From contig DATHBB010000171.1 of assembly GCA_035296385.1 (NCBI GenBank), forward strand, positions 7,329 to 71,328: a stretch of DNA of 64,000 nucleotides, written 5' to 3'. Position 1 is the stretch's first letter. The number at the start of each line of letters is the position of its first letter. A model generated the notes under the pieces. The model ran no database searches. It saw only the letters and a program-made list of their open reading frames with translations, and was not told the origin of the DNA. The stretch comes from Pyrinomonadaceae bacterium (lineage in GTDB: Bacteria > Acidobacteriota > Blastocatellia > Pyrinomonadales > Pyrinomonadaceae). Position numbers and translations under genes: made by a program. Shown here piece after piece: positions 3,505-53,052 of this stretch.

Positions 3505-3586
3505 AGAGGTTAGAGGTCAGAGGTCAGAGGTCAGTTAAAGCAACTTCTGTCTTTTACTGACCTCTGACCTCTAACCTCTGACCTCT
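3505..3586. repeat. Heptad-periodic palindromic element H2 (AGAGGTY family)
   Basis: Arms are 3505..3540 (agaggttagaggtcagaggtcagaggtcagttaaag) and 3551..3586, about 33/36 complementary, with a 10-nt loop. It lies between divergently transcribed genes, 6 nt from the start codon at 3498. Confidence 0.9.
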
Positions 3587-3683: not shown

Positions 3684-4676
3684 ATGAGTAAACACGGAAA
3701 ATTTCAGACGACTTTAGAATACGCCGTCACGCGCGCCCTGCTCGGCGGCCTCGGACTGTTGCCGCGCCCGGCGGCGGTCGCCACGGGTCGCGCGGCCGGC
3801 AGGCTCGCGCACAAGTTCGCGGGCGGCCTGCGTCGCACCGGCCAAATCAACCTCAAACTCGCTTTCCCCGAAATGGACCAGCGCGAGCGCGCGAAGATGC
3901 TGCGCGCGTCTTTCGACAATCTGGGACGCTTGCTCGGCGAGTTCAGCCAGTTTCCGCGCGCGACCCCGGAGAGCTTGCGCAAGCTGGTCGAGTACGATCA
4001 GGTCGGTCTGAGGCATTTGCGCGAGGCCGAGGGACAGGGGCGCGGCGTCATCTTCCTGACGGCTCATCTGGGCGCGTGGGAGTTTCTCAGTTTCGCCTGG
4101 TCTGCGCTCGAATACCCGATCAGTTTTCTCGTGCGCCCGATAGACAATCCGCGCGTCGAGGAGTTCATAGAGGGCATCCGCACACGCTACGGCAACACGG
4201 CCATCAATAAGAAAATGGCCGCGCGCCAGGCGTTGCGCGTCCTGCGCGACGGCGGCACGCTCGGCATTCTGGCCGACCTCAACACGCACCCGAACGAAGG
4301 CGTCTTCGTCCCCTTCTTCGGCCACCTCGCCTGCACCACCTCCGGCGTCGCCACGCTCGCCCTGCGCACGGACGCGCTCGTCATCCCCACCTGCGCCGTG
4401 TGGGACAAAGAGCGCGGCCGTTTCTTCTTTCACGGCGACCCACCCGTCGAATTAGTCCGCACCGGCGACGACAAACGCGACATCGAGACAAACACGGCAA
4501 ACTTCGCCGCCGCCATCGAACGCATGATCCGCGCCTACCCGGAACAGTGGCTCTGGATTCACAAACGCTGGCGCACTCGCCCCGCCGGAGAGCCTGATTT
4601 CTATAGCCGCCGGGAACAGTTCGACACAAAAGAGCCACAACTGACCGCTCCTACCAGCCGCAACAGCTTCTCCTGA
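3684..4676 (+). CDS. Lipid A biosynthesis (Kdo2-lipid IVA) acyltransferase family protein, LpxL/HtrB-like
   Basis: Start chosen at ATG 3684 (MSKHGKFQTTLEYAV). Typical N-terminal helix. LKLAFPEMDQRERAKMLRASFDNLGRLLGEF and VIFLTAHLGAWEF (H-x4-E-type acyltransferase motif) are characteristic of the LpxL/HtrB family. Confidence 0.8.
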   Translation: MSKHGKFQTTLEYAVTRALLGGLGLLPRPAAVATGRAAGRLAHKFAGGLRRTGQINLKLAFPEMDQRERAKMLRASFDNLGRLLGEFSQFPRATPESLRKLVEYDQVGLRHLREAEGQGRGVIFLTAHLGAWEFLSFAWSALEYPISFLVRPIDNPRVEEFIEGIRTRYGNTAINKKMAARQALRVLRDGGTLGILADLNTHPNEGVFVPFFGHLACTTSGVATLALRTDALVIPTCAVWDKERGRFFFHGDPPVELVRTGDDKRDIETNTANFAAAIERMIRAYPEQWLWIHKRWRTRPAGEPDFYSRREQFDTKEPQLTAPTSRNSFS

Positions 4677-4794
4677 GCACAAATTTCAAAACTTTTTTCT
4701 TTACCGAACATACCTTCTTACTCTTTATTATCAACACTTAGCTCTCAACCCGAATCTCCTTGTCACAAAATTGTCATTTTTTTGCATTTTATTG

Positions 4795-4824
4795 TTGACA
4801 TCCCGCAAAGGTTTAGTGTAATTT
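4795..4824 (+). promoter_or_regulatory. Sigma70-like promoter candidate (TTGACA, 17-18 nt spacer, GTAATT/TAATTT)
   Basis: TTGACA at 4795..4800 and a TAAT-containing -10 at about 4818..4824, inside an AT-rich intergenic island. Confidence 0.4.
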
Positions 4825-4830
4825 CACACA

Positions 4831-5126
4831 CGTCGGAGGGCAGTAAGTTTTATAACAAAGTTCTTAAAAGAGACTGTCCTTCGAGATTTTTGAAAGCAGA
4901 AGACTTTAGGCCAGATGCTACTGGACGGAAGAGGCCAGTTTTACGAAACATTCATTTTTCCGAGCCTTGCAATTTTAACTCGCCCGTACCAACGCAGCCG
5001 ACCAACATGCCGGATCGCCCGTAAGCGACGATCTCCAGCGCCCAAGTCAACGCCACCCTGAATCTCCGAGCCTGCCCCAAAATTTCAGCCTCGTTAGTCC
5101 CCAAACTAACGAGGCTGCTTCTCTTT
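4831..5126 (+). ncRNA. Candidate orphan small RNA (promoter-to-terminator unit, about 300 nt)
   Basis: Bounded by the promoter candidate at 4795..4824 and the terminator at 5086..5126. No convincing ORF or RBS inside. AT-rich compared with the flanks. No known RNA family recognised. Confidence 0.3.
5086..5126. terminator. Rho-independent terminator, probably bidirectional
   Basis: Stem cagcctcgttagt / actaacgaggctg (13 bp) with a 6-nt loop. It is followed by cttctcttt on the plus strand and preceded by aaaattt, which gives a U-tract on the minus strand downstream of fabG. Confidence 0.75.
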
Positions 5127-5207
5127 GCAGCAATCAATTTTCGGCAGACGCCGGTTCGACGGTAACTTTTCCCACTACTCGCGAACTCCCCTTCGCAAGC
5201 GACCGTC

Positions 5208-5969
5208 TCACATCGCCAGCCCGCCGTCCACCTGAATCACCTGTCCCGTGATGTAACGCGCCGCCGGTGAAACCAGAAAACACGCGATCTCGGCGACTTC
5301 CTGCGTCTCGGCGAAGCGTCCGAGCGGAATCTGTTCGAGCAGCTTCGTCTTGTAAGCGTCGTCGAGCGCGCCCGACATGTCGGTGGCGACGAGTCCGAGC
5401 GCGAGCGCGTTGACCGTCACCTTGCGGCTCGCCACCTCTTTCGCCAGAGCCTTCGTCAAACCCACAAGCCCCGCCTTCGACGCAGAGTAATTCGATTGTC
5501 CGGCCATCCCGACCAACCCGCTGATGGAGGAGATGTTCAAGACCGAGCCGCCCTCTTCCTGCCTGAGCATCACGCGCAGCGCGGCGCGCGCGAAGTTCCA
5601 GGGGCCTTTCAAATTCGTGTCCACGACAGCGTCCCAATCGGCTTCCTTCATGCGCAGGATCAGGTTATCGCGCGTGACGCCCGCGTTGTTGACGAGAAAA
5701 TCTATGCGCCCGAACGCCTCTTTGGTCTGCTTGACCATTTCGGCCACGGCCTCCGTCTGCGCCACGTCGCACTGCGTCGCCACGGCTTTCACGCCGAGCG
5801 ACTCGATCTCTGTGCGCAACTCTTCGGCGGCCTCCGCGCTCTTCGCGTAGTTGAACGCGACATGCGCGCCGCGCCTCGCCAGCTCGAGCGCGATGGCGCG
5901 ACCGATGCCGCGCGTCGCCCCGGTCACAATCGCCGCCCGCCCGTCGAAAGGTTTAGTTGCGTCGCCCAA
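5208..5969 (-). CDS. fabG: 3-oxoacyl-ACP reductase (SDR family)
   Basis: TTG start at 5969 is preceded by GAAGGAGG. Motifs: TGATRGIGRAIA (cofactor binding), NNAG, and the catalytic YSASKAG. The end-to-end sequence is FabG-like. Confidence 0.85.
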   Translation of the reverse strand: MGDATKPFDGRAAIVTGATRGIGRAIALELARRGAHVAFNYAKSAEAAEELRTEIESLGVKAVATQCDVAQTEAVAEMVKQTKEAFGRIDFLVNNAGVTRDNLILRMKEADWDAVVDTNLKGPWNFARAALRVMLRQEEGGSVLNISSISGLVGMAGQSNYSASKAGLVGLTKALAKEVASRKVTVNALALGLVATDMSGALDDAYKTKLLEQIPLGRFAETQEVAEIACFLVSPAARYITGQVIQVDGGLAM

Positions 5970-13152: not shown

Positions 13153-14262
13153 TTATCGTTTCACGATCCAGCCGCCGCCGAGCACTTCGTCGCCGCGATA
13201 GAAGACGGTCGCCTGTCCGGGCGCGATGGCGCGTTGCGGTTCGTCGAAGATGACGCGCGCGCGTCTGTCCGCGAGCGGCTCGACCGTCGCGGGGGCGGGC
13301 GCGTGGCGATAACGCACGCGCACCTCCGCGCGCACGGGCGCGTTCGGCTCGTCGAAGCTGATCCAGTTGACGCCCGCGGCCGTGAACTCGGAGGCGAGCA
13401 ACTCGTCGCTCTCGCCGACGACCACGCGGTTATGCTCCGCGTCAACTTTGACTACGTAGAGCGGCAGCGGGCGCGACAGCCCCAAGCCGCGACGCTGGCC
13501 GACCGTGTAGTGATGCACGCCCTGATGCTCGCCGAGCACGCGCCCCGACGCGTCAACGATCTCGCCCGCGCCGGGCAGACGGCGCGTCTCGCCCTCGGAT
13601 TCCAGATAACGATCTATGAAGCCCGCGTAGTCGCCGTCGGGCACGAAACAGATTTCCTGCGACTCGGCCTTTTCCGACACGGCGAGGTTGAAACGCCGCG
13701 CCGCCGCGCGCGCCTCCTCCTTACGCATCTCGCCGAGCGGAAACATCGCGTGCGCCAGTTGCGCCTGCGTCAACTCCCACAGGAAATAGGATTGATCCTT
13801 GTTCGCGTCGCGCCCGCGCAAAAGTCTGTGCCGCGCGGTCGCTTCGTCCACCGAGACGCGCGCGTAATGTCCCGTCGCCACGCGCTCGCAGCCGAGGCTT
13901 TGCGCCATCCGGTCGAGCGAGGCGAACTTCAGACGGCTGTTGCAGGCCACGCAGGGAATCGGCGTCTCGCCTTCCAGATAACTCGTGACGAACGGCTGCA
14001 CCACGTCGCGCTCGAAATCCTGTTCGAGATTCAGGACGTAGAAGGGAAAGCCGAGTTCTCCGGCCACGCGTCGCGCGTCGTACACGTCGTCGAGCGAGCA
14101 GCAGCGCGAGGGCAGAGGGTCGCCGTGTTCGTCCACGTTGATGTTGCGGTTCTGATTCCACAACTGCATCGTGAAGCCGACGAGTTCGTGCCCTGCCGCC
14201 TGTAAAATCGCCGCCGCCGCCGAAGAATCAACGCCGCCGCTCATCGCCACCGCAATCTTCAT
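13153..14262 (-). CDS. mnmA: tRNA 2-thiouridine(34) synthase
   Basis: [19 protein letters not shown]-loop, conserved Cys residues and full-length MnmA-like sequence. GAGG RBS at 14267..14270. Confidence 0.95.
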
Positions 14263-20031: not shown

Positions 20032-20112
20032 AACGATGAAGTGGGAACGCGGAACGATGAACTGAAAGCAAGTGTCTTTCAGTTCATCGTTCCGCGTTCC
20101 TACTTCATCGTT
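20032..20112. repeat. Heptad-periodic palindromic element H4 (AACGATG/GGAACGC family)
   Basis: 37-nt arms (20032..20068 and 20076..20112) are complementary except for one G-T pair. The loop is 7 nt (caagtgt). It lies between convergent genes. Confidence 0.95.
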
Positions 20113-20168
20113 TTGCTTTGCGTCTCTGCGGTGCAAGGTTTCGCTTAAACCCAAACGCACGCGGGCGC

Positions 20169-23653: not shown

Positions 23654-23741
23654 AGGGGCGCAGGCCATCGTAAAATTGAAGGGAGATGTTACCTGCGCGT
23701 CGCCGGTAAGCGCGTGAGCGAATCGTTAAGGAAGCCGCGTG

Positions 23742-24152
23742 ATGGACGAGCGAAAGAGGCGTCTGAAGAAAGAGTACCTGCAACAGCGCAGGGCGATGGG
23801 CGTCTTCCTCATACGCAATACGGTCAACGACAAGGTGCTCGTCGGCGTCGGTCTCGATCTTTCAGGCATCATCAACAGCCACAAGTTCCAACTGGCGGCG
23901 GGCGTTCACCGCAACCGGCGTCTGCAAAGCGATTGGAACGCGCTCGGCGGCGCGAACTTCACCTTCGAGATTCTCGATCAACTCGAACCGCGCGCGGACG
24001 CCGAAGACGACGGGCGACAGGATTTGGCGTTTCTCGAAGAACTCTGGCTGGAGAAGTTGCAACCGTTCGGCACGCGCGGCTACAACAAACGCAAGCTGAC
24101 GAGAGAAGAGATGCTGCGGCGAATCGCAGCCGGACAGTCGCCCAAACACTGA
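23742..24152 (+). CDS. GIY-YIG domain protein
   Basis: AAGGAAG RBS 7 nt before ATG 23742. GVFLIRNTVNDKVLVGVGLDLSGIINSHKFQLAAGVHRNRRLQSDW ... FTFEILD follows the GIY-(10-11 aa)-YIG ... R ... H ... N ... E layout of small GIY-YIG proteins. Confidence 0.7.
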   Translation: MDERKRRLKKEYLQQRRAMGVFLIRNTVNDKVLVGVGLDLSGIINSHKFQLAAGVHRNRRLQSDWNALGGANFTFEILDQLEPRADAEDDGRQDLAFLEELWLEKLQPFGTRGYNKRKLTREEMLRRIAAGQSPKH

Positions 24153-24221
24153 CGCTCGAATTACGCGGAAAATTTCGTTCCGGCCTGGGCAGATTTTACC
24201 AGCCCCGTCTCAACCAGCCGG

Positions 24222-24251
24222 TTGAGACGCCTGAGAGCGGTGCGGTATAGT
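24222..24251 (+). promoter_or_regulatory. Sigma70-like promoter upstream of the tRNA-Ser locus (TTGAGA, 18-nt spacer, TATAGT)
   Basis: TTGAGA at 24222..24227 and TATAGT at 24246..24251, about 15 nt before the tRNA-like 5' fragment. Confidence 0.5.
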
Positions 24252-24266
24252 GTGTGAGCAAATTAG

Positions 24267-24302
24267 GGAGGCTTGGGCTAATTGGTAAGTCAGCAGTCTT
24301 GA
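24267..24302 (+). pseudogene. 5' half of a disrupted tRNA-Ser(UGA) gene (acceptor strand through anticodon)
   Basis: GGAGGCT TG GGC TAATTGGTAA GTC A GCAGT CTTGA is 29/36 identical to the intact tRNA-Ser 424 bp downstream. The D-loop and the C-U-UGA part of the anticodon loop are identical. Similarity stops exactly after anticodon base 36. Confidence 0.8.
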
Positions 24303-24334
24303 GTCCCGTTGTCTCTGTCGCTATATTATTTTCT

Positions 24335-24700
24335 ATGAGAATTACTCAAAGAAAAGGTGACATAGCAACTGCTCAGGCCATAGCAACCTTTACACGTTTG
24401 GGCTACGATGTGTCCATTCCGATAACGGAATCTGCTAAATATGACTTAATCGTTGATACGCCCGATGGACTCAGACGGGTACAGGTTAAATATAGCAGTG
24501 ATCGGAAAGTGGGTTTAAGAAACATCCACTCAAACGCGAGCGGGTATGTGGTGAAAAAATGTGAGCCGAACGCTTACGATTGGCTCTATATCCTCTATGC
24601 GGCGCAAACTGGATTTGAGGAATATCTGTTACCCGAATGTTTTGCGGGTCGAAACTCTGTAAGTCTCACCCCATATTCCAGGATTCTGATGGAAGGGTAG
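24335..24700 (+). CDS. PD-(D/E)XK endonuclease, I-Ssp6803I-like (homing-endonuclease-type)
   Basis: ATG 24335 gives MRITQRKGDIATAQAIATFTRLGYDVSIPITESAKYDLIVDTPDGLRRVQVKYS. This is the KG-(x)-AE ... G ... V ... P ... YDLI ... RVQVK pattern of the small PD-(D/E)XK family that includes the tRNA-intron homing endonuclease I-Ssp6803I. The ORF is visibly AT-rich relative to the flanks, and its stop codon lies inside the tRNA. Confidence 0.7.
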   Translation: MRITQRKGDIATAQAIATFTRLGYDVSIPITESAKYDLIVDTPDGLRRVQVKYSSDRKVGLRNIHSNASGYVVKKCEPNAYDWLYILYAAQTGFEEYLLPECFAGRNSVSLTPYSRILMEG

Positions 24701-24776
24701 CCTAATTGGTAAGGCAGTAGTCTTGAAAACTACCGCACGAAAGTGCTTGCAGGTTCGAGTCCTGTCCCTTCCGCCA
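24691..24776 (+). tRNA. tRNA-Ser (anticodon UGA), CCA encoded
   Basis: Manual cloverleaf. Acceptor GGAAGGG / CCCTTCC. 3-bp D stem GCC/GGC with loop TAATTGGTAA. Anticodon stem GTAGT/ACTAC with loop CTTGAAA. Long variable arm GCAC-GAAA-GTGC. T arm GCAGG-TTCGAGT-CCTGT. Discriminator G, then CCA. Confidence 0.9.
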
Positions 24777-26317: not shown

Positions 26318-26938
26318 ATGCGTTCCGCACGTTCCCTGAATCCGAGCCAGCGCGCCGCCGTGCCCGATAAGCGCGAAGCCATCTTGCGCGCCGCCACCAA
26401 AGTCTTCGCCACGAACGGCTACTTCAACTCGAAGGTGGCCGACGTGGCGCGCGTCGCGGGCGTCGCCGACGGCACGGTCTATCTCTACTTCAAGAGCAAA
26501 GAGGAAATCCTGCGTTCGATCTTCGAGCGCGGCGTGAATGATGCCGTCACGGACGCGCGCGCCGAGGTCGCCTCGCTCACGGACGCGCGCGAGAAGTTGC
26601 GCCGCATCGCGCGCCTGCATCTCGAACGGCTCGGCGCGGATCGCGATCTGGCCGTCGTCTTTCAAGTCGAACTGCGCGGCTCGACGAAGTTCATGGAAGA
26701 GTTTTCCGCAGCCGGTCTCGCCGAGTACCTGCGGCTCATCCGTGAGACGCTGGAAGAGGGGCAGCGCGCCGGACTCTTTCGCGCGGAACTGAACGCGAAA
26801 GTCGTCGCCAAGATTCTCTTCGGCGCGCTCGACGAGATGGCGACCAACTGGATTCTCTCGCCGCGCGCCTACAAGCTCGCGCCGCTGGCCGATCAAGTGC
26901 TCGACATTTTTCTGAACGGAGTAAGCACCAGCAGATGA
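26318..26938 (+). CDS. TetR/AcrR family transcriptional regulator
   Basis: HTH region ILRAATKVFATNGYFNSKVADVARVAGVADGTVYLYFKSKEEIL. The stop overlaps the next start (ATGA). Confidence 0.85.
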   Translation: MRSARSLNPSQRAAVPDKREAILRAATKVFATNGYFNSKVADVARVAGVADGTVYLYFKSKEEILRSIFERGVNDAVTDARAEVASLTDAREKLRRIARLHLERLGADRDLAVVFQVELRGSTKFMEEFSAAGLAEYLRLIRETLEEGQRAGLFRAELNAKVVAKILFGALDEMATNWILSPRAYKLAPLADQVLDIFLNGVSTSR

Positions 26939-28902
26939 CCGCAGACCCCAAGACGAACAGCGCGAACACGACGGAGACGGACGCCGCAAACGCGACCGCC
27001 GCAGCAGCAACAACAGCGGCGGGAGGCGAAGCGACTACCGCCGCGACGGGCGCGGAAGATTTCATACACATCCCGCTGCCCACGCGCGTCCCGCTCTCCG
27101 CGGACGAACCTCAGACGCTCGCGGAAGTTTTCGAGCGCGCCGTCACGCGTCACCCCAAGCGCGACGCGCTCAACTACAAGCGCGACGGCGTGTGGCGCTC
27201 GATCTCCTCCGCCGAATTGCTCGAACGCGCGCAACTCATCGCCTACGGACTCTACGCGCTCGGCCTCCGGCGCGGTGAACGCGCGGCCATTCTCTCCGAG
27301 AGTTCGCCCGAATGGACGCTCACGGACGCGGGCTGCCAGTTCGCAGGCGTCGTTGATGTTCCCATCTACCCGACGCAAGCGCCGCCGCAGGTGCGCTACA
27401 TCCTCGACGATTCGGGCGCGCGCGTGCTCTTCGTGCGCAACCGCGACTCATTCCAGCGCATCTTCGAGGCCATCGACGGCGCGCCCGCGCTCGAACACCT
27501 CGTTTTCTTCGAGCCGGAGGGCGCGGAAGAGACCGGCGCGACGACGCTCGAAGCGTTGATCGAACGCGGGCGCGCGCTGCGCGACGAACAACCCGATTTA
27601 ATCAACGAACTCGCGCACGCCGCCAAACCGGAAGACCTCGCGACGATCATCTACACTTCCGGCACGACGGGCGAGCCGAAAGGCGTCATGCTCACGCACT
27701 CGAACCTCGTCACGAATCTGATCGACAGTTCCGGCCATCTCGCCTTCAGCGAGACAGACGTGGCGCTCTCCGTGCTCCCGCTCTCGCACGTCCTCGAACG
27801 TCTCGGCATGTACATGTACATTTATCACGGGATGAGCGTCTTCTACGCGGAGTCAATCGAGAAGATCGGCGAGAACATACGCGAGGTGCGCCCGACCGTC
27901 ATGCTCTGCGTGCCGCGTCTCTTCGAGAAGATTTACGCGCGCATACAGGAGAAGGCCACCGCCGCCGGAAAACTCCAGGCCGGAATACTCGCCTGGGCGG
28001 TCGGCGTCGGGAAACTCTGGGCGCAAACCGTGGTCGCGCGCAAGCCCGTCCCGCCGCTCTTGCAGTTGAAGCACAATCTCGCCACGCGTCTCGTCTTCTC
28101 GAAGTGGCGTGCGGGCTTGGGCGGGCGTATGCGCCTGTTCGTCTCGGGCGGCGCGGCGCTGCCCGAAGAGATCGGCTACATCTTCATGGGCGCGGGCGTG
28201 CCCATCGTGCAGGGCTACGGGCTGACTGAAACTTCGCCCGTCATCGCCGCCGGGACGCTGGAAGACAACCGCATCGGCACGGTGGGGCGACCGATCAAAA
28301 ACGTCGAAGTGCGCATCGCGCCCGACGGGGAGATCGAGACGCGCGGGCCGAACATCATGCGCGGCTATTACAAGAAGCCCGCCGAGACGCGCGCCGTTTT
28401 CACGGACGACGGCTGGTTCAAGACGGGCGACATCGGCTTGATTGACGCGGACGGCTTCCTGAAGATCACGGACCGCAAGAAGGAGCTTTTCAAAACGTCG
28501 GGCGGCAAGTACATCGCGCCCTCCGTCATCGAGACGCGCATCAAGAGCTCGCGCTTCGTCAATCAAGTCGTGCTCGTAGGCCACGGGCGCAAGTACCCGG
28601 CGGCGCTCATCGTCCCCGACTGGGAACAACTCCGCGCCTACGCGCAACACAAAGGCATACGCGACGGCGTCGGGACGCCCGCAGAGATGTGCCGCCACCC
28701 GCGCCTGCTCGATCTCGTGCAGCGACAGGTTGAGGCCTCGTGCGCCGACCTCTCGCAGTACGAACGCGTCAAGCGCATCGCGCTGTTGGAGCGCGAACTC
28801 TCCATCGAAGGCGGCGAACTCACGCCCACGCTCAAGGTCAAACGCCGCGTCGTTGACGAAAAATATCGCGACGTGATCAACCGCCTTTACGCGAACAGTT
28901 AA
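26935..28902 (+). CDS. Long-chain fatty acid--CoA ligase (AMP-forming)
   Basis: AMP-binding motifs IIYTSGTTGEPKGVMLTHSN, GYGLTETS and FKTGDIG. N-terminal low-complexity Ala/Thr extension. Confidence 0.9.
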   Translation: MTADPKTNSANTTETDAANATAAAATTAAGGEATTAATGAEDFIHIPLPTRVPLSADEPQTLAEVFERAVTRHPKRDALNYKRDGVWRSISSAELLERAQLIAYGLYALGLRRGERAAILSESSPEWTLTDAGCQFAGVVDVPIYPTQAPPQVRYILDDSGARVLFVRNRDSFQRIFEAIDGAPALEHLVFFEPEGAEETGATTLEALIERGRALRDEQPDLINELAHAAKPEDLATIIYTSGTTGEPKGVMLTHSNLVTNLIDSSGHLAFSETDVALSVLPLSHVLERLGMYMYIYHGMSVFYAESIEKIGENIREVRPTVMLCVPRLFEKIYARIQEKATAAGKLQAGILAWAVGVGKLWAQTVVARKPVPPLLQLKHNLATRLVFSKWRAGLGGRMRLFVSGGAALPEEIGYIFMGAGVPIVQGYGLTETSPVIAAGTLEDNRIGTVGRPIKNVEVRIAPDGEIETRGPNIMRGYYKKPAETRAVFTDDGWFKTGDIGLIDADGFLKITDRKKELFKTSGGKYIAPSVIETRIKSSRFVNQVVLVGHGRKYPAALIVPDWEQLRAYAQHKGIRDGVGTPAEMCRHPRLLDLVQRQVEASCADLSQYERVKRIALLERELSIEGGELTPTLKVKRRVVDEKYRDVINRLYANS

Positions 28903-28965
28903 AACCTGAAACCTACGCGCGGCGAGCATCGTTAGATAACTTTCCGCTTGTAGCGGCAGAAGAGA

Positions 28966-29144
28966 TTCACCGCAGAGGCGCAGAGCAAAGCCGCAAGAGG
29001 CGTCGCAGAGGAAAACGATGAAGTAGGAACGCGGAACGATGAAGTAAAAGCAACTGTCTTTAGTTCATCGTTCCGCGTTCCTACTTCATCATTTGTTTTC
29101 TCTGCGCCCGTCTCTGCGGCTTTGCTCTGCGCCTCTGCGGTGAA
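28966..29144. repeat. Palindromic element H6-outer (TTCACCGC ... GCGGTGAA family) carrying a nested element
   Basis: ttcaccgcagaggcgcagagcaaagccgcaagaggcgtcgcagagg ... cctctgcg ... ctctgcgcctctgcggtgaa. The termini are shared with the elements at 43605 and 49477. Confidence 0.9.
29014..29092. repeat. Palindromic element H6-inner (AACGATG/GGAACGC family), nested in the centre of H6-outer
   Basis: About 75/81 positions are identical to H4 at 20032..20112 by hand alignment, and it has the same loop core aaagcaa-N-tgtcttt. Confidence 0.9.
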
Positions 29145-29186
29145 TGCTTTTAGTCGTAGTTAATTTTAATCGAACAACAAACGGCC

Positions 29187-30578
29187 ATGAGTCTTAAGAA
29201 CATCATCACTTTACTGCGCGAGGCCGTCGGCGGCTCGGAGCAGGATTTCACGAAAGGCAGCATCAACCGCGCCATCGTGCTGCTCTCCGTGCCGATGATC
29301 CTGGAGATGATGATGGAGTCGCTGTTCGGCGTCGTCAACATCCTCTACGTCGCGCGGCTCGGCGCGGAATCAATCGCCACCGTCGGCCTGACCGAGTCCA
29401 TGCTCACGATCATCTTCGGCATCGCGATGGGACTCAGCATGGCGACGACGGCGACGGTCGCGCGGCGCACCGGCGAGGGCGACACGGAAGGCGCGGCGGT
29501 CGCCGCAGTTCAAGCCATCATGCTCGGCGTGCTCACGTCGCTGCCCGTGGCCGTCGTGGGCGTCGTGTACGCGCCCGCGCTCCTGCGGGTGATGGGGGCG
29601 GAGGCGGGCGTCGTCGCGAGCGGCTCTACTTACGCGGCGATCATACTCGGCGGCAACGTCTGCATCATGCTGCTGTTTCTCATCAACGCGATCTTTCGCG
29701 GCGCGGGCGACGCGGCGGTGGCGATGCGCTCGCTCTGGATCGCCAACCTCGTCAACATCGCGCTCGACCCCTGCCTCATCTTCGGACTCGGCCCCTTCCC
29801 CGAACTCGGCGTCACCGGCTCGGCCATCGCCACGACCATCGGGCGCTCAACGGGCGTCGTCTATCAACTCTGGATTCTGCTCGGCGGGCGCAGCCGCGTC
29901 AAAGTTACGCGCGCGCACCTGCGGCTCGATCCGGCTGTGATGATGAGACTGCTGCGGATTTCTCTGGGCGGGATGTTTCAATATCTCGTGGCGACGGCGA
30001 GTTGGCTGGGGCTGACGCGCATCGTCGCCATCTTCGGAAGCGAAGCTCTGGCGGGCTACACGCTCTCGCTCCGCATCATCATCTTCGCGCTCCTGCCTTC
30101 GTGGGGCATGGCGAACGTGGCGGCCACGCTCGTCGGGCAGAATCTCGGCGCAGGCCAGCCGGAGCGCGCGGAGCGTTCGGTGTGGCGGGCGGGATTGAGC
30201 AACATGATCTTTCTCGGCGCGGTCGCGCTCGTCTTCGTCGTCTTCGCCGAACGCATCATCGGCCTCTTCACGGGAGACGCGGGCGTCGTCGCCTACGGCG
30301 TCTCAAGCCTGCGCCTCTTGAGCTACGGCTACATTTTCTACGCCTACGGCATGGTGATGGTGCAGGCGTTCAACGGAGCGGGCGACACCTTCACGCCGAC
30401 CATGATCAACCTCGGCTGCTACTGGCTCTTCCAAATCCCGCTCGCCTACGCCCTCGCCATCCCTTTCGATCTGGGCGCAACAGGCGTCTTCGCGGCGATT
30501 CCCGTTAGCGAATCGCTGCTCACCATCGTCGCCGTAATCTTCTTCCGGCGCGGGCGTTGGAAGACGCAGGAAGTTTAA
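29187..30578 (+). CDS. MATE family efflux transporter
   Basis: 463 aa with about 12 predicted helices. Typical MATE N-terminus ([29 protein letters not shown]) and an internal repeat. Confidence 0.9.
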
Positions 30579-30701
30579 GTTGTCCGTGGTCAGTAGTCAG
30601 TTGTCCGTTGCATGTGGCTCTCACATGCGTGGCTAAAGATTGAATTGATCAACTGACGACAGACAAAGAACAACTGACAACGGACTACGGACAACTGACG
30701 G
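30579..30701. repeat. Heptad-periodic palindromic element H7 (CAGTTGTCCGT family)
   Basis: gttgtcc gtggtca gtagtca gttgtcc gttg ... caactgacaacggactacggacaactgacgg. Imperfect. The central part carries its own small hairpin (catgtg ... cacatg). It lies between convergent genes. Confidence 0.85.
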
Positions 30702-43604: not shown

Positions 43605-43706
43605 TTCACCGCGGAGGCGCGGAGCAAAGCCGCAGAGTGTGCGCAGACAAGATCATTCAACTCTCTCTGCGCACACTCTGCGCACACTCTGCGTCTCTGC
43701 GGTGAA
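43605..43706. repeat. Palindromic element H8 (TTCACCGC ... GCGGTGAA family)
   Basis: ttcaccgcggaggcgcggagcaaagccgcagagtgtgcgcag ... ctgcgcacactctgcgcacactctgcgtctctgcggtgaa. It starts 4 nt after the kinase stop codon. Confidence 0.9.
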
Positions 43707-49476: not shown

Positions 49477-49577
49477 TTCACCGCAGAGGCGCAGAGCAGA
49501 ACCGCAGAGGGGGCGCAGAGAAGAAGTTAATCTTTTCTCTGCGCCCCCTCTGCGCCTCTCTGCGTCTCTGCGGTGAA
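49477..49577. repeat. Palindromic element H10 (TTCACCGC ... GCGGTGAA family)
   Basis: ttcaccgcagaggcgcagagcagaaccgcagagggggcgcagag ... ctctgcgccccctctgcgcctctctgcgtctctgcggtgaa. It lies between convergent genes. Confidence 0.9.
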
Positions 49578-52975: not shown

Positions 52976-53052
52976 AGTGACAAGTGACGAGTGACAAGTT
53001 AAAGACAGGTGCTTTGCTTTAACTTGTCACTCGTCACTTGCCACTTGTCACT
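52976..53052. repeat. Heptad-periodic palindromic element H11 (GTGACAR family, loop core inverted)
   Basis: agtgacaagtgacgagtgacaagttaaag ... ctttaacttgtcactcgtcacttgccacttgtcact. The stop codon of the minus-strand gene (53048..53050) lies inside the right arm. Confidence 0.9.

Follow-up and report, generated by a model that had tools for sequence, protein, structure and literature searches.

The 64,000-nt stretch of DNA analysed here (the window) comes from a metagenome-assembled genome (MAG) of a soil bacterium of the Pyrinomonadaceae (Acidobacteriota), and our subject is a 179-nt nested palindrome in the intergenic spacer at 28966-29144. A gene for a long-chain acyl-CoA synthetase (AMP-binding; 26935-28902, forward strand), which served to locate orthologous loci, lies upstream of it, and a gene for a MatE efflux transporter (29187-30578, forward strand) lies downstream. 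The outer left arm (28966-29012) is a CGCAGAG-type terminal inverted repeat, TTCACCGCAGAGGCGCAGAGCAAAGCCGCAAGAGGCGTCGCAGAGGAA, and the outer right arm, TTTTCTCTGCGCCCGTCTCTGCGGCTTTGCTCTGCGCCTCTGCGGTGAA, occupies 29095-29144. Between them, the inner left arm (29013-29048) is built of AACGATG-type heptamer units (AACGATG AAGTAGG AACGCGG AACGATG AAGTAAA) and is followed by the apex module AAAGCAACTGTCTTT (29045-29062, forward strand; consensus AAAG(A/C)CA-N-(T)GCTTT) and by the inner right arm (29059-29094). A T-rich tail, TGCTTTTA (29145-29152, forward strand), stands 3' of the stem.

An earlier reading made from the letters alone (the sequence-only reading) had described this stretch as one palindromic element set exactly in the centre of another, and that description held up. 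An inverted-repeat search returned inner arms of 36 nt at 29013-29048 and 29059-29094, 94% complementary, enclosed by an outer pair at 28965-29026 and 29084-29145. The whole 191 nt forms one stem, folding at -150.3 kcal/mol as RNA (z = -21.3) and at -96.5 as DNA (z = -20.7), with none of 200 shuffles folding as well. The outer terminus TTCACCGCAGAGGCGCAGAG, with up to 3 mismatches allowed, has seven matches in the window against an expectation of 0.03; the inner arm has four (0 expected). Alignment to insert-free copies of the outer element, namely the paralogous 'empty' mini-elements of the window at 43605-43706 (beginning 4 nt past a stop codon) and 49477-49577 together with the metagenome copies L179, L134 and L130 (L-numbers denote comparison loci from other assemblies), placed the extra ~75-79 nt of the composite exactly at the loop, between ...CGCAGAG-GAAA and TTTTCTCTGCG..., and bore out the statement that the two sister elements in the window have no insert. 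The inner part is 7-nt periodic (lag-7 match 0.55) and the outer part is not (0.25), so the composite joins two different classes of repeat; this, like the second inner copy at 20032-20112 described below, goes beyond what the sequence-only reading had reported.

Both repeat families were defined in this analysis. The miniature of the GxxExxY cassette consists of TTCACC and at least two CGCAGAG-like cores (1-6-nt spacers), a variable interior, and complementary cores ending in GGTGAA, and this pattern was found in the composite as well as at 43605-43706 and 49477-49577. AACGATG-type hairpins, which have AACGATG/AAGTAGG/AACGCGG units and an AAAG(A/C)CA-N-GCTTT apex and stand after stop codons, include those at 29013-29094 and 20032-20112.

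The 20-mer TTCACCGCAGAGRCGCAGAG of the outer family was found at at least 120 loci in metagenomes of many habitats, including soil and sediment; counts for this family and for the inner one are lower bounds and not random samples. CGCAGAG elements have conserved termini and arm cores of CGCAGAG spaced 1-6 nt apart, around an interior that varies greatly: it may be a short loop, in elements of 70-100 nt overall, or as much as ~200 nt of cargo, often itself a hairpin; among the matches listed, most outer-type loci have no AACGATG-type core. CGCAGAG termini 0.33-5 kb apart were seen only in L116 and L129 among the matches listed, and the link to a gene came through clustering of open reading frames (ORFs) near the termini, by which a gene of ~127 aa was found to be bracketed exactly in L185, L182, L116 and L203, and by CGCAAAG-variant ends in L168. 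Its product is a GxxExxY protein (TIGR04256, 146 bits; Pfam PF13366 PDDEXK_3, 144 bits). As these first loci had been picked by repeat, the GxxExxY family was also sampled by protein alone, and the protein-selected loci L235 and L238 had the same ends as the repeat-selected cassettes, while L239-L245 had CACGAAG-unit variant ends around their GxxExxY genes, with extra tandem gene-less minis in L241. The very 20-nt terminus of the outer left arm in the window brackets GxxExxY genes in L185, L182, L116, L235 and L238. Because identical termini bracket GxxExxY genes, the outer palindrome can be recognised as the joined inverted ends (TTCACC-(CGCAGAG)n ... GGTGAA) of a GxxExxY cassette, and its left arm as the left end of a gene-less derivative.

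The repeat ends of such cassettes are partly translated. The outer right arm encodes, in gene-carrying relatives, the ...SAPSASLR tail of the predicted nuclease and its TGA stop; in L185 the reading frame crosses the right repeat to a TGA stop within GGTGAA. Over-long gene calls among the best 120 homologues run straight into the repeat, an N-terminal HRRDAEDAE being translated CACCGCAGAGACGCAGAG and a C-terminal ...SAPSASLR* translated TCTGCGCCCTCTGCGTCTCTGCGGTGA, and some cassette GxxExxY genes are frameshifted. The catalytic residues D70/E80/K82 (D...ExK) are invariant, and the predicted structure is confident (predicted local distance difference test, pLDDT, 84) with a disordered repeat-encoded tail. 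PF13366 has been described as a family of unknown function with multiple horizontal transfers (PMC3424549), and no description of repeat ends was found in the literature on GxxExxY/PF13366. Public GxxExxY gene calls (P0122-P0239) are often mis-extended, with N-terminal HRRDAEDAE or HHRDTESTE and C-terminal SAPSASLR, and these repeat-end extensions are a systematic annotation artefact. A second GxxExxY cassette with CACGAAG-unit ends (L238-L245 comparison, ~4780-5420) stands after the same gene in L239-L245; L238 is without it and has a ParE-toxin pair in its place, which looks like a presence/absence polymorphism inside an operon.

The outer element resembles miniature inverted-repeat transposable elements (MITEs) in its terminal inverted repeats of ~20 nt, its variable interior, its many gene-less copies and its longer gene-carrying relatives, with which it, and it alone of the two layers, shares TTCACCGCAGAG... 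termini. Unlike MITEs, it has as parent gene that of a ~127-aa PD-(D/E)XK GxxExxY protein and no recognised transposase, its arms are made of repeated 7-8-nt cores, and part of its right repeat is coding sequence, stop codon included. Nor does it have a target-site duplication: no direct repeat was found around 30 complete CGCAGAG elements. Neither that duplication nor a transposase-encoding parent, both of which belong to the definition of MITEs, was therefore found.

Hairpins of the inner kind are abundant in the window, which holds ~14 long intergenic hairpins, mostly beginning no more than ~110 nt past a stop codon and many of them 0-13 nt from a stop or start codon. Twelve have arms of tandem 7-nt units (lag-7 self-match 0.53-0.91), and the unit varies by locus (GTGACAA, AGAGGTC, GTCCGTT, GGGTAAA, CAGAATT, GTGAATG, AACGATG); the three CGCAGAG-type elements reach only 0.21-0.25. 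The apex module AAAG(A/C)CA-N-(T)GCTTT is common to many of the heptamer hairpins, and a strict motif classification of its orientation relative to transcription left most elements unclassified. An exact 18-mer of the inner arm was found at at least 105 loci in species-representative genomes, mostly MAGs of Pyrinomonadaceae and other Acidobacteriota. Among the matches listed there are several copies per genome, the median AACGATG-type hairpin is 94 nt long, where a neighbouring gene was called (54 elements, the gene calls being crude) a gene 3' end adjoins the element in 50 cases, and CGCAGAG-type flanks accompany none of 109 elements. Copies in different species are 92-96% identical, and no gene-carrying form of the family was seen in our sample of collected loci. 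Inner and outer types each occur separately and are independent of one another. AACGATG-type hairpins were also met in MAGs labelled Betaproteobacteria (L010, L014, L045), Gemmatimonas (L040, L052, L064, L103, L106, L112) and Gammaproteobacteria (L038), either through cross-phylum spread or through mis-binned contigs. Two other heptamer hairpins of the window, a GTGACAA-type at 2884-2968 and an AGAGGTC-type at 3505-3586, bracket ~540 nt without a convincing gene, the only ORF between them having a third-position GC content (GC3) of 0.61 and no Pfam match.

The sequence-only reading had likened the insertion to those of repetitive extragenic palindromes (REPs) with their RAYT transposases or of IS200/IS605-type systems, and here it fared less well. 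REPs and REPINs are described as imperfect palindromes of 20-40 bp with a conserved GTAG or CGTC at one end (PMC3733652). The termini here are TTCACC.../...GGTGAA in the outer element and (A)AACGATGAAG.../...CTTCATCGTT(T) in the inner, on arms of 36-62 nt, and carry no such heads. REP, BIME and REPIN elements are further presented as high-copy extragenic palindromes standing after genes or between convergent genes, forming mosaics and presumed to be terminators or mRNA stabilisers (PMC3116915, PMC3733652). Ours are like them in being short extragenic palindromes in very high copy, after genes or between convergent genes and in mosaics, but have arms of 35-60 nt made of tandem 7-nt units where REPs have 20-40 nt, and are nested tip in tip where REPs form side-by-side doublets.

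Insertion sequences such as IS1397 and ISKpn1, which carry transposases and make target duplications, specifically target the loops of REP hairpins. They share with the present case a mobile element entering the apical loop of an extragenic palindrome, but the insert here is a ~75-nt hairpin without a gene. In cyanobacteria, STRR and small dispersed repeats were reportedly found by Elhai et al. (2008) to include very small repeats nested within others with the hairpins preserved. Like these and the heptamer repeats of Beggiatoa, our elements consist of intergenic tandem 7-nt units, but they belong to another phylum and form long inverted arrays with a common apex module. The TAACTGA repeats of Beggiatoa are direct and lie upstream of start codons (MacGregor 2015, PMC4679880), and the GTCAGTT/AACTGAC units found here are one base different from them. 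No description of Acidobacteria heptamer hairpins, nor of the exact repeat sequences, was found in the literature. Integron attC sites were dismissed, the genes being syntenic housekeeping ones and the GTTAAAG/CTTTAAC motif lying at the apex and not the base; CRISPR was dismissed as there are no spacer arrays.

IS200/IS605 elements have hairpin-shaped ends and make no target duplication, as here, and an activity on single-stranded DNA would fit the targeting of loops; unlike them, our elements are entire palindromes rather than subterminal hairpins, no TnpA (Y1) was detected with them, and no fixed target motif could be defined beyond the AAAG(A/C)CA...GCTTT apex. One could suppose that a trans-acting HUH/Y1 enzyme transposes these hairpins as non-autonomous single strands with a preference for single-stranded loops. 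That the elements are hairpins, inserted in apical loops, in high copy and with a consensus conserved across genomes, and that composites and sub-hairpins move as units, speaks for such transposition, as does the missing target-site duplication: the junctions in the window show none, which the analogy with single-stranded DNA transposons permits. The window was said to contain no transposase, and none was found among its 10 atypical ORFs; no Y1/HUH gene or transposase-like cluster is enriched near the AACGATG elements; and a tblastn search with three Y1 queries, a weak test covering 1.65 Mb of related DNA, gave no RAYT/TnpA and one weak match, on an unrelated metagenome contig. Many families with unrelated arms would each require their own recognition, the gene-carrying outer form encodes a PD-(D/E)XK nuclease and not a Y1 enzyme, the termini are without the heads that define the REP superfamilies (PMC3733652), and the replacement junctions at this locus, described below, fall within homologous sequence in the manner of gene conversion. 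We regard Y1-driven transposition as unlikely, and do not assign the elements to the REP/RAYT or IS200/IS605 systems. The one weak tblastn match (RAYT-like, E = 5e-6) lies at L212 1302-1628, on a contig that has a CGCAGAG terminus.

The history of the site was followed in relatives. The order acyl-CoA synthetase, MatE is kept in four distinct relatives (83-91% protein identity), and all four (L002, L003, L004, L006) hold the layered composite in the orthologous spacer, each followed by GCTTTTA, with conserved layers TCACCGCAGAG...CTCTGCGGTG outside and GAAAAC-(A)ATGAAG...ATCGTT...TTTTC inside. The composite evidently predates the divergence of at least five species-level lineages. More distant relatives (69-75%) are without MatE and have spacers of 38-65 nt, two of them without a hairpin; in the third, L009, a naked inner-type hairpin overlaps the stop codon. 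The composite is confined to the clade that has the MatE gene. The sequence-only reading held that it would fail were the composite ancestral and its parts never independent: the composite does stand in four related species, but independent copies of both parts exist. Its proposal of an insertion into the apex was likewise sustained in part, by the independence of the parts, by the recurrent tip nesting described below and by the replacement of the tip content here, but not as a recent insertion into an empty element at this locus.

The tip of the hairpin has a different history from its base. The inner core of the window shares only 47-58% identity with the four orthologous cores, against 58-76% among those four, while the outer arms of the window are closest to those of L002 (72%). 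With L098, a non-orthologous locus in another genome, the core of the window shares 96% identity (75 of 77 nt), and the change-over points lie within sequence that the former and the present core have in common (…GGAAAAC|(A)ATGAAG…). Since the core approaches L098 and departs from the orthologous cores, the tip was recently overwritten by a fresh copy of the family in the lineage of the window, in a manner resembling gene conversion.

The five orthologous composites were also compared for pairing. Their alignment has 87.9% of cells paired, and double-change pairs numbered 14, against 7.1 ± 1.8 in column shuffles (0 of 500) and 4-9 with partners slid, although such statistics have only five sequences to draw on, and the effect of selection could be imitated by template switching from arm to arm. 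Such changes raise the alternative that the composite is a selected functional RNA stem, its nesting a form of modular growth, serving as bidirectional terminator or 3' stabiliser of the acyl-CoA synthetase gene or as 5' leader of MatE. Five lineages keep the composite at one spacer with pairing-preserving changes, the T-rich tail after the stem is conserved, a conserved block, ATCGTTAGATAACTTTC, stands directly upstream, such hairpins are nearly always found directly past a stop codon, and at one site (site A) the heptamer hairpin of the window corresponds to a classical terminator in L004 and L006. Both layers, however, belong to families scattered over hundreds of loci with no relation to one another, the present inner core replaced an older one and has a 96% match in another genome, and several hairpins stand 3-13 nt before a start codon within what look like operons, an odd place for a terminator.

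Searches for a function of the stem gave little. Features of a putative terminator are present, a stem and then a conserved short T-run, TGCTTTT, but the consensus terminator scan makes no call because the composite exceeds its stem and loop limits. No Rfam family matches the composite at gathering threshold, which elsewhere in the window only a tRNA reaches, and a permissive scan gave sub-threshold miRNA-precursor-like matches on both strands, the generic noise of long hairpins. Nothing informative on function came from the terminator/promoter scan, Rfam, a PDB sequence search or Foldseek against PDB. We consider a selected stem an unlikely explanation of the nesting; it concerns function and is compatible with a mobile origin. 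By analogy with REP-like elements, a role for the host as a 3'-end or intergenic stem, as terminator or mRNA stabiliser, is likely. The upstream block, 28903-28965 (CTGAAACC...(A/C)TCGTTAGATAACTTTC(C/G)G), is near-invariant in the five orthologous spacers, its conservation far exceeding that of the hairpin, and could be a MatE promoter/operator or a 3' untranslated region element.

A second AACGATG-type hairpin (20032-20112, arms 97% complementary) lies between convergent genes and is abutted, on its right side only, by a remnant of an outer-type right terminus, TTTGCTTTGCGTCTCTGCGGTGC (20113-20135, forward strand). No such terminus flanks any of the 109 other AACGATG members among the matches listed, and because of this CTCTGCGGTG flank the simplest reading is that the 20032 element would be a partial copy of the composite, comprising the inner element and part of the outer right arm. 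L004 and L006 have no AACGATG hairpin at the orthologous position but classical terminators or a different repeat, which makes the 20032 copy a lineage-specific gain. Its sequence is that of a consensus-like family member; that it was uniquely closest to the copy at 29014 was rejected, several copies in other genomes being equally close. At the same site L006 (3596-3700) has six copies of a 12-nt tandem repeat (GACRTTGAAGTCY) and then a classical terminator.

Further nested copies, which the sequence-only reading had proposed to look for, do exist: in at least 17 of the 109 AACGATG-type hairpins among the matches listed, a second unit-repeat hairpin occupies the tip. These inserts belong to CAGAAGT, GTCAGTT/GTCCGT, TGATTCA, AAAACTC and GAAAACT types, and the half-apexes of the host, AAAGAC... 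and ...GCTTTT, are usually kept on either side. Empty and filled states were found at orthologous sites, L022 and L113 being empty where L105 has a ~77-nt tip insert (flanks 90-93% identical; no target-site duplication at the L105/L113 junctions), and L063 being empty where L018 is filled. L013 and L099 have common host arms and different inserts, one genome has an identical composite at two loci (L066, L083), and CGCAGAG minis enclose assorted hairpin cargo. Hairpin-tip acquisition and replacement recur in this lineage, and composites are copied as units. L081 (693-820) and the window (52976-53045) have hairpins with unlike arm units (AACGATG and GTGACAA) at an orthologous site. Both of these carry an AAAGACA..TGCTTT apex in equal orientation, either from arm turnover around a retained tip or by coincidence.

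Some AACGATG hairpins also lie inside long palindromes of unique sequence (L063 651-828, L074 1345-1517), and the outer arms at 28966-29144 could in the same way be the product of local growth, an immobile outer palindrome having formed by fold-back (template-switch) copying of the flanks around an existing inner hairpin. The naked inner-type hairpin after the same gene in the distant L009 would suit such growth, as would the flanks of CGCAGAG elements, which are slightly more complementary than chance (3.76 against 3.22, z about 3); this excess is weak, and we do not rely on it as a sign that CGCAGAG elements sit in host hairpins. The outer arms, however, form a family, with identical 20-nt termini at at least 120 loci and around GxxExxY genes, and two insert-free copies stand in the same window. 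Fold-back growth at 28966-29144 appears largely refuted by these sequences, and we hold it to be very unlikely.

The composite or its consensus-like core might also be an artefact, generated by collapse of repeats or palindromes in the de Bruijn graph. All the data are MAGs or metagenomes, a second assembly with an identical spacer (L001) may stem from the same reads, and L044 has at a contig end a perfect fold-back of more than 270 nt centred on such a hairpin. The layered architecture, however, was met again at the orthologous site in four assemblies made independently in different projects, and contigs built with k = 141 span the inner element, which is shorter (79 nt); an artefact is extremely unlikely. 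The L044 palindrome (1-273, DATHAZ010000038.1) is near-perfect and takes in coding sequence; the AACGATG-type hairpin at its centre most probably led the assembly to fold back there, which would make the palindrome an artefact.

The explanation that we favour, with a probability of about one half, is that the element is a layered 'onion' hairpin of two unrelated repeat classes with a history of tip breakage and templated copying. The outer layer is a gene-less miniature of the GxxExxY cassette, in which TTCACC-(CGCAGAG-unit)n and (unit')n-GGTGAA are joined, so that the 'cargo slot' of the cassette, between the joined ends, becomes the hairpin tip. The inner layer is a high-copy Pyrinomonadaceae hairpin with tandem 7-nt arms that normally stands alone right after stop codons. 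In an extruded or replicating palindrome the tip, its only single-stranded part, would be the point vulnerable to breaks or insertions; a break there would be repaired by copying a partly homologous hairpin elsewhere, in a gene-conversion or homing-like manner, or else a self-folding module would be inserted. Since a self-pairing insert lets the arms of the host re-pair, insertions at tips would be tolerated and accumulate. Of these steps, a tip break followed by templated copying is the most likely, and the best candidate for the cutting enzyme is the predicted nuclease of the full-length relatives of the outer element.

Several points weigh against this explanation. Gene conversion within a genome does not alone explain identities of 92-96% across species, and copying at the tip leaves the 7-nt periodicity of the arms without an explanation. 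All the sequences are metagenome assemblies, in which palindromic repeats are prone to error, and the compensatory changes could have come from mechanical arm-to-arm template switching and not from selection. An empty orthologue of 28966-29144, which the sequence-only reading had proposed to look for, was absent among the four close relatives, all of which have the composite, and the three distant ones, so that paralogues alone speak for the original nesting event. A fold search with GxxExxY returned only generic PD-(D/E)XK nucleases (best E = 0.016), which does not indicate what is cut, and no GxxExxY gene was found in the window or in ~0.9 Mb of Pyrinomonadaceae loci, so that the candidate enzyme may be missing here. 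Apparently unique GC-rich hairpins stand inside the repeat arms in L021 and as cargo of L144 and L168, and with such cargo the addition of arms around a hairpin fits equally well as an insertion into a tip.

More broadly, and tentatively, it is possible that GxxExxY cassettes are an unrecognised selfish mobile class that homes into hairpin tips and terminators across many phyla and leaves gene-less miniatures behind, and that they and the heptamer families jointly give rise to onion hairpins, and keep dispersed copies alike, through tip-directed cutting and copying.

Few features of bacterial genomes are as poorly understood as small extragenic palindromes, and this locus provides a concrete, datable example of their build-up: an old two-layer hairpin, the tip of which was later overwritten. 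The clean empty and filled orthologous pairs found elsewhere make the idea that hairpin tips are hot spots of recombination or insertion directly testable. The very large GxxExxY family (PF13366), of unknown function, gains a genomic context, its genes lying between inverted ends made of repeat units. If the nuclease does act on cassette ends or hairpin tips, the cassettes would be a new kind of mobile element, and its action would explain many breaks in metagenome assemblies and mis-called gene ends (HRRDAEDAE / SAPSASLR). Neither the heptamer hairpins of Acidobacteriota nor the repeat ends of GxxExxY genes were found described in the literature; the nearest known phenomena are MITEs (for the outer element), REP/BIME/REPIN elements, insertion sequences that target REP loops and the nested small repeats and heptamer arrays of cyanobacteria.

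Two further features of the window were noted. In the spacer after MatE (30578-30696) the window, L002 and L006 have a hairpin of GTCCGTT type, L004 one of TGATTCA type (13676-13758) and L003 something else (3822-4030), which shows turnover of hairpin families at a fixed site. A pair of ORFs with low GC3 (0.43-0.44, against ~0.8 elsewhere) at 23714-24773 abuts a tRNA gene (24691-24773) and includes at 24254-24700 a PDDEXK_5 endonuclease (PF11645, E = 1e-16), and looks like a small acquired islet.

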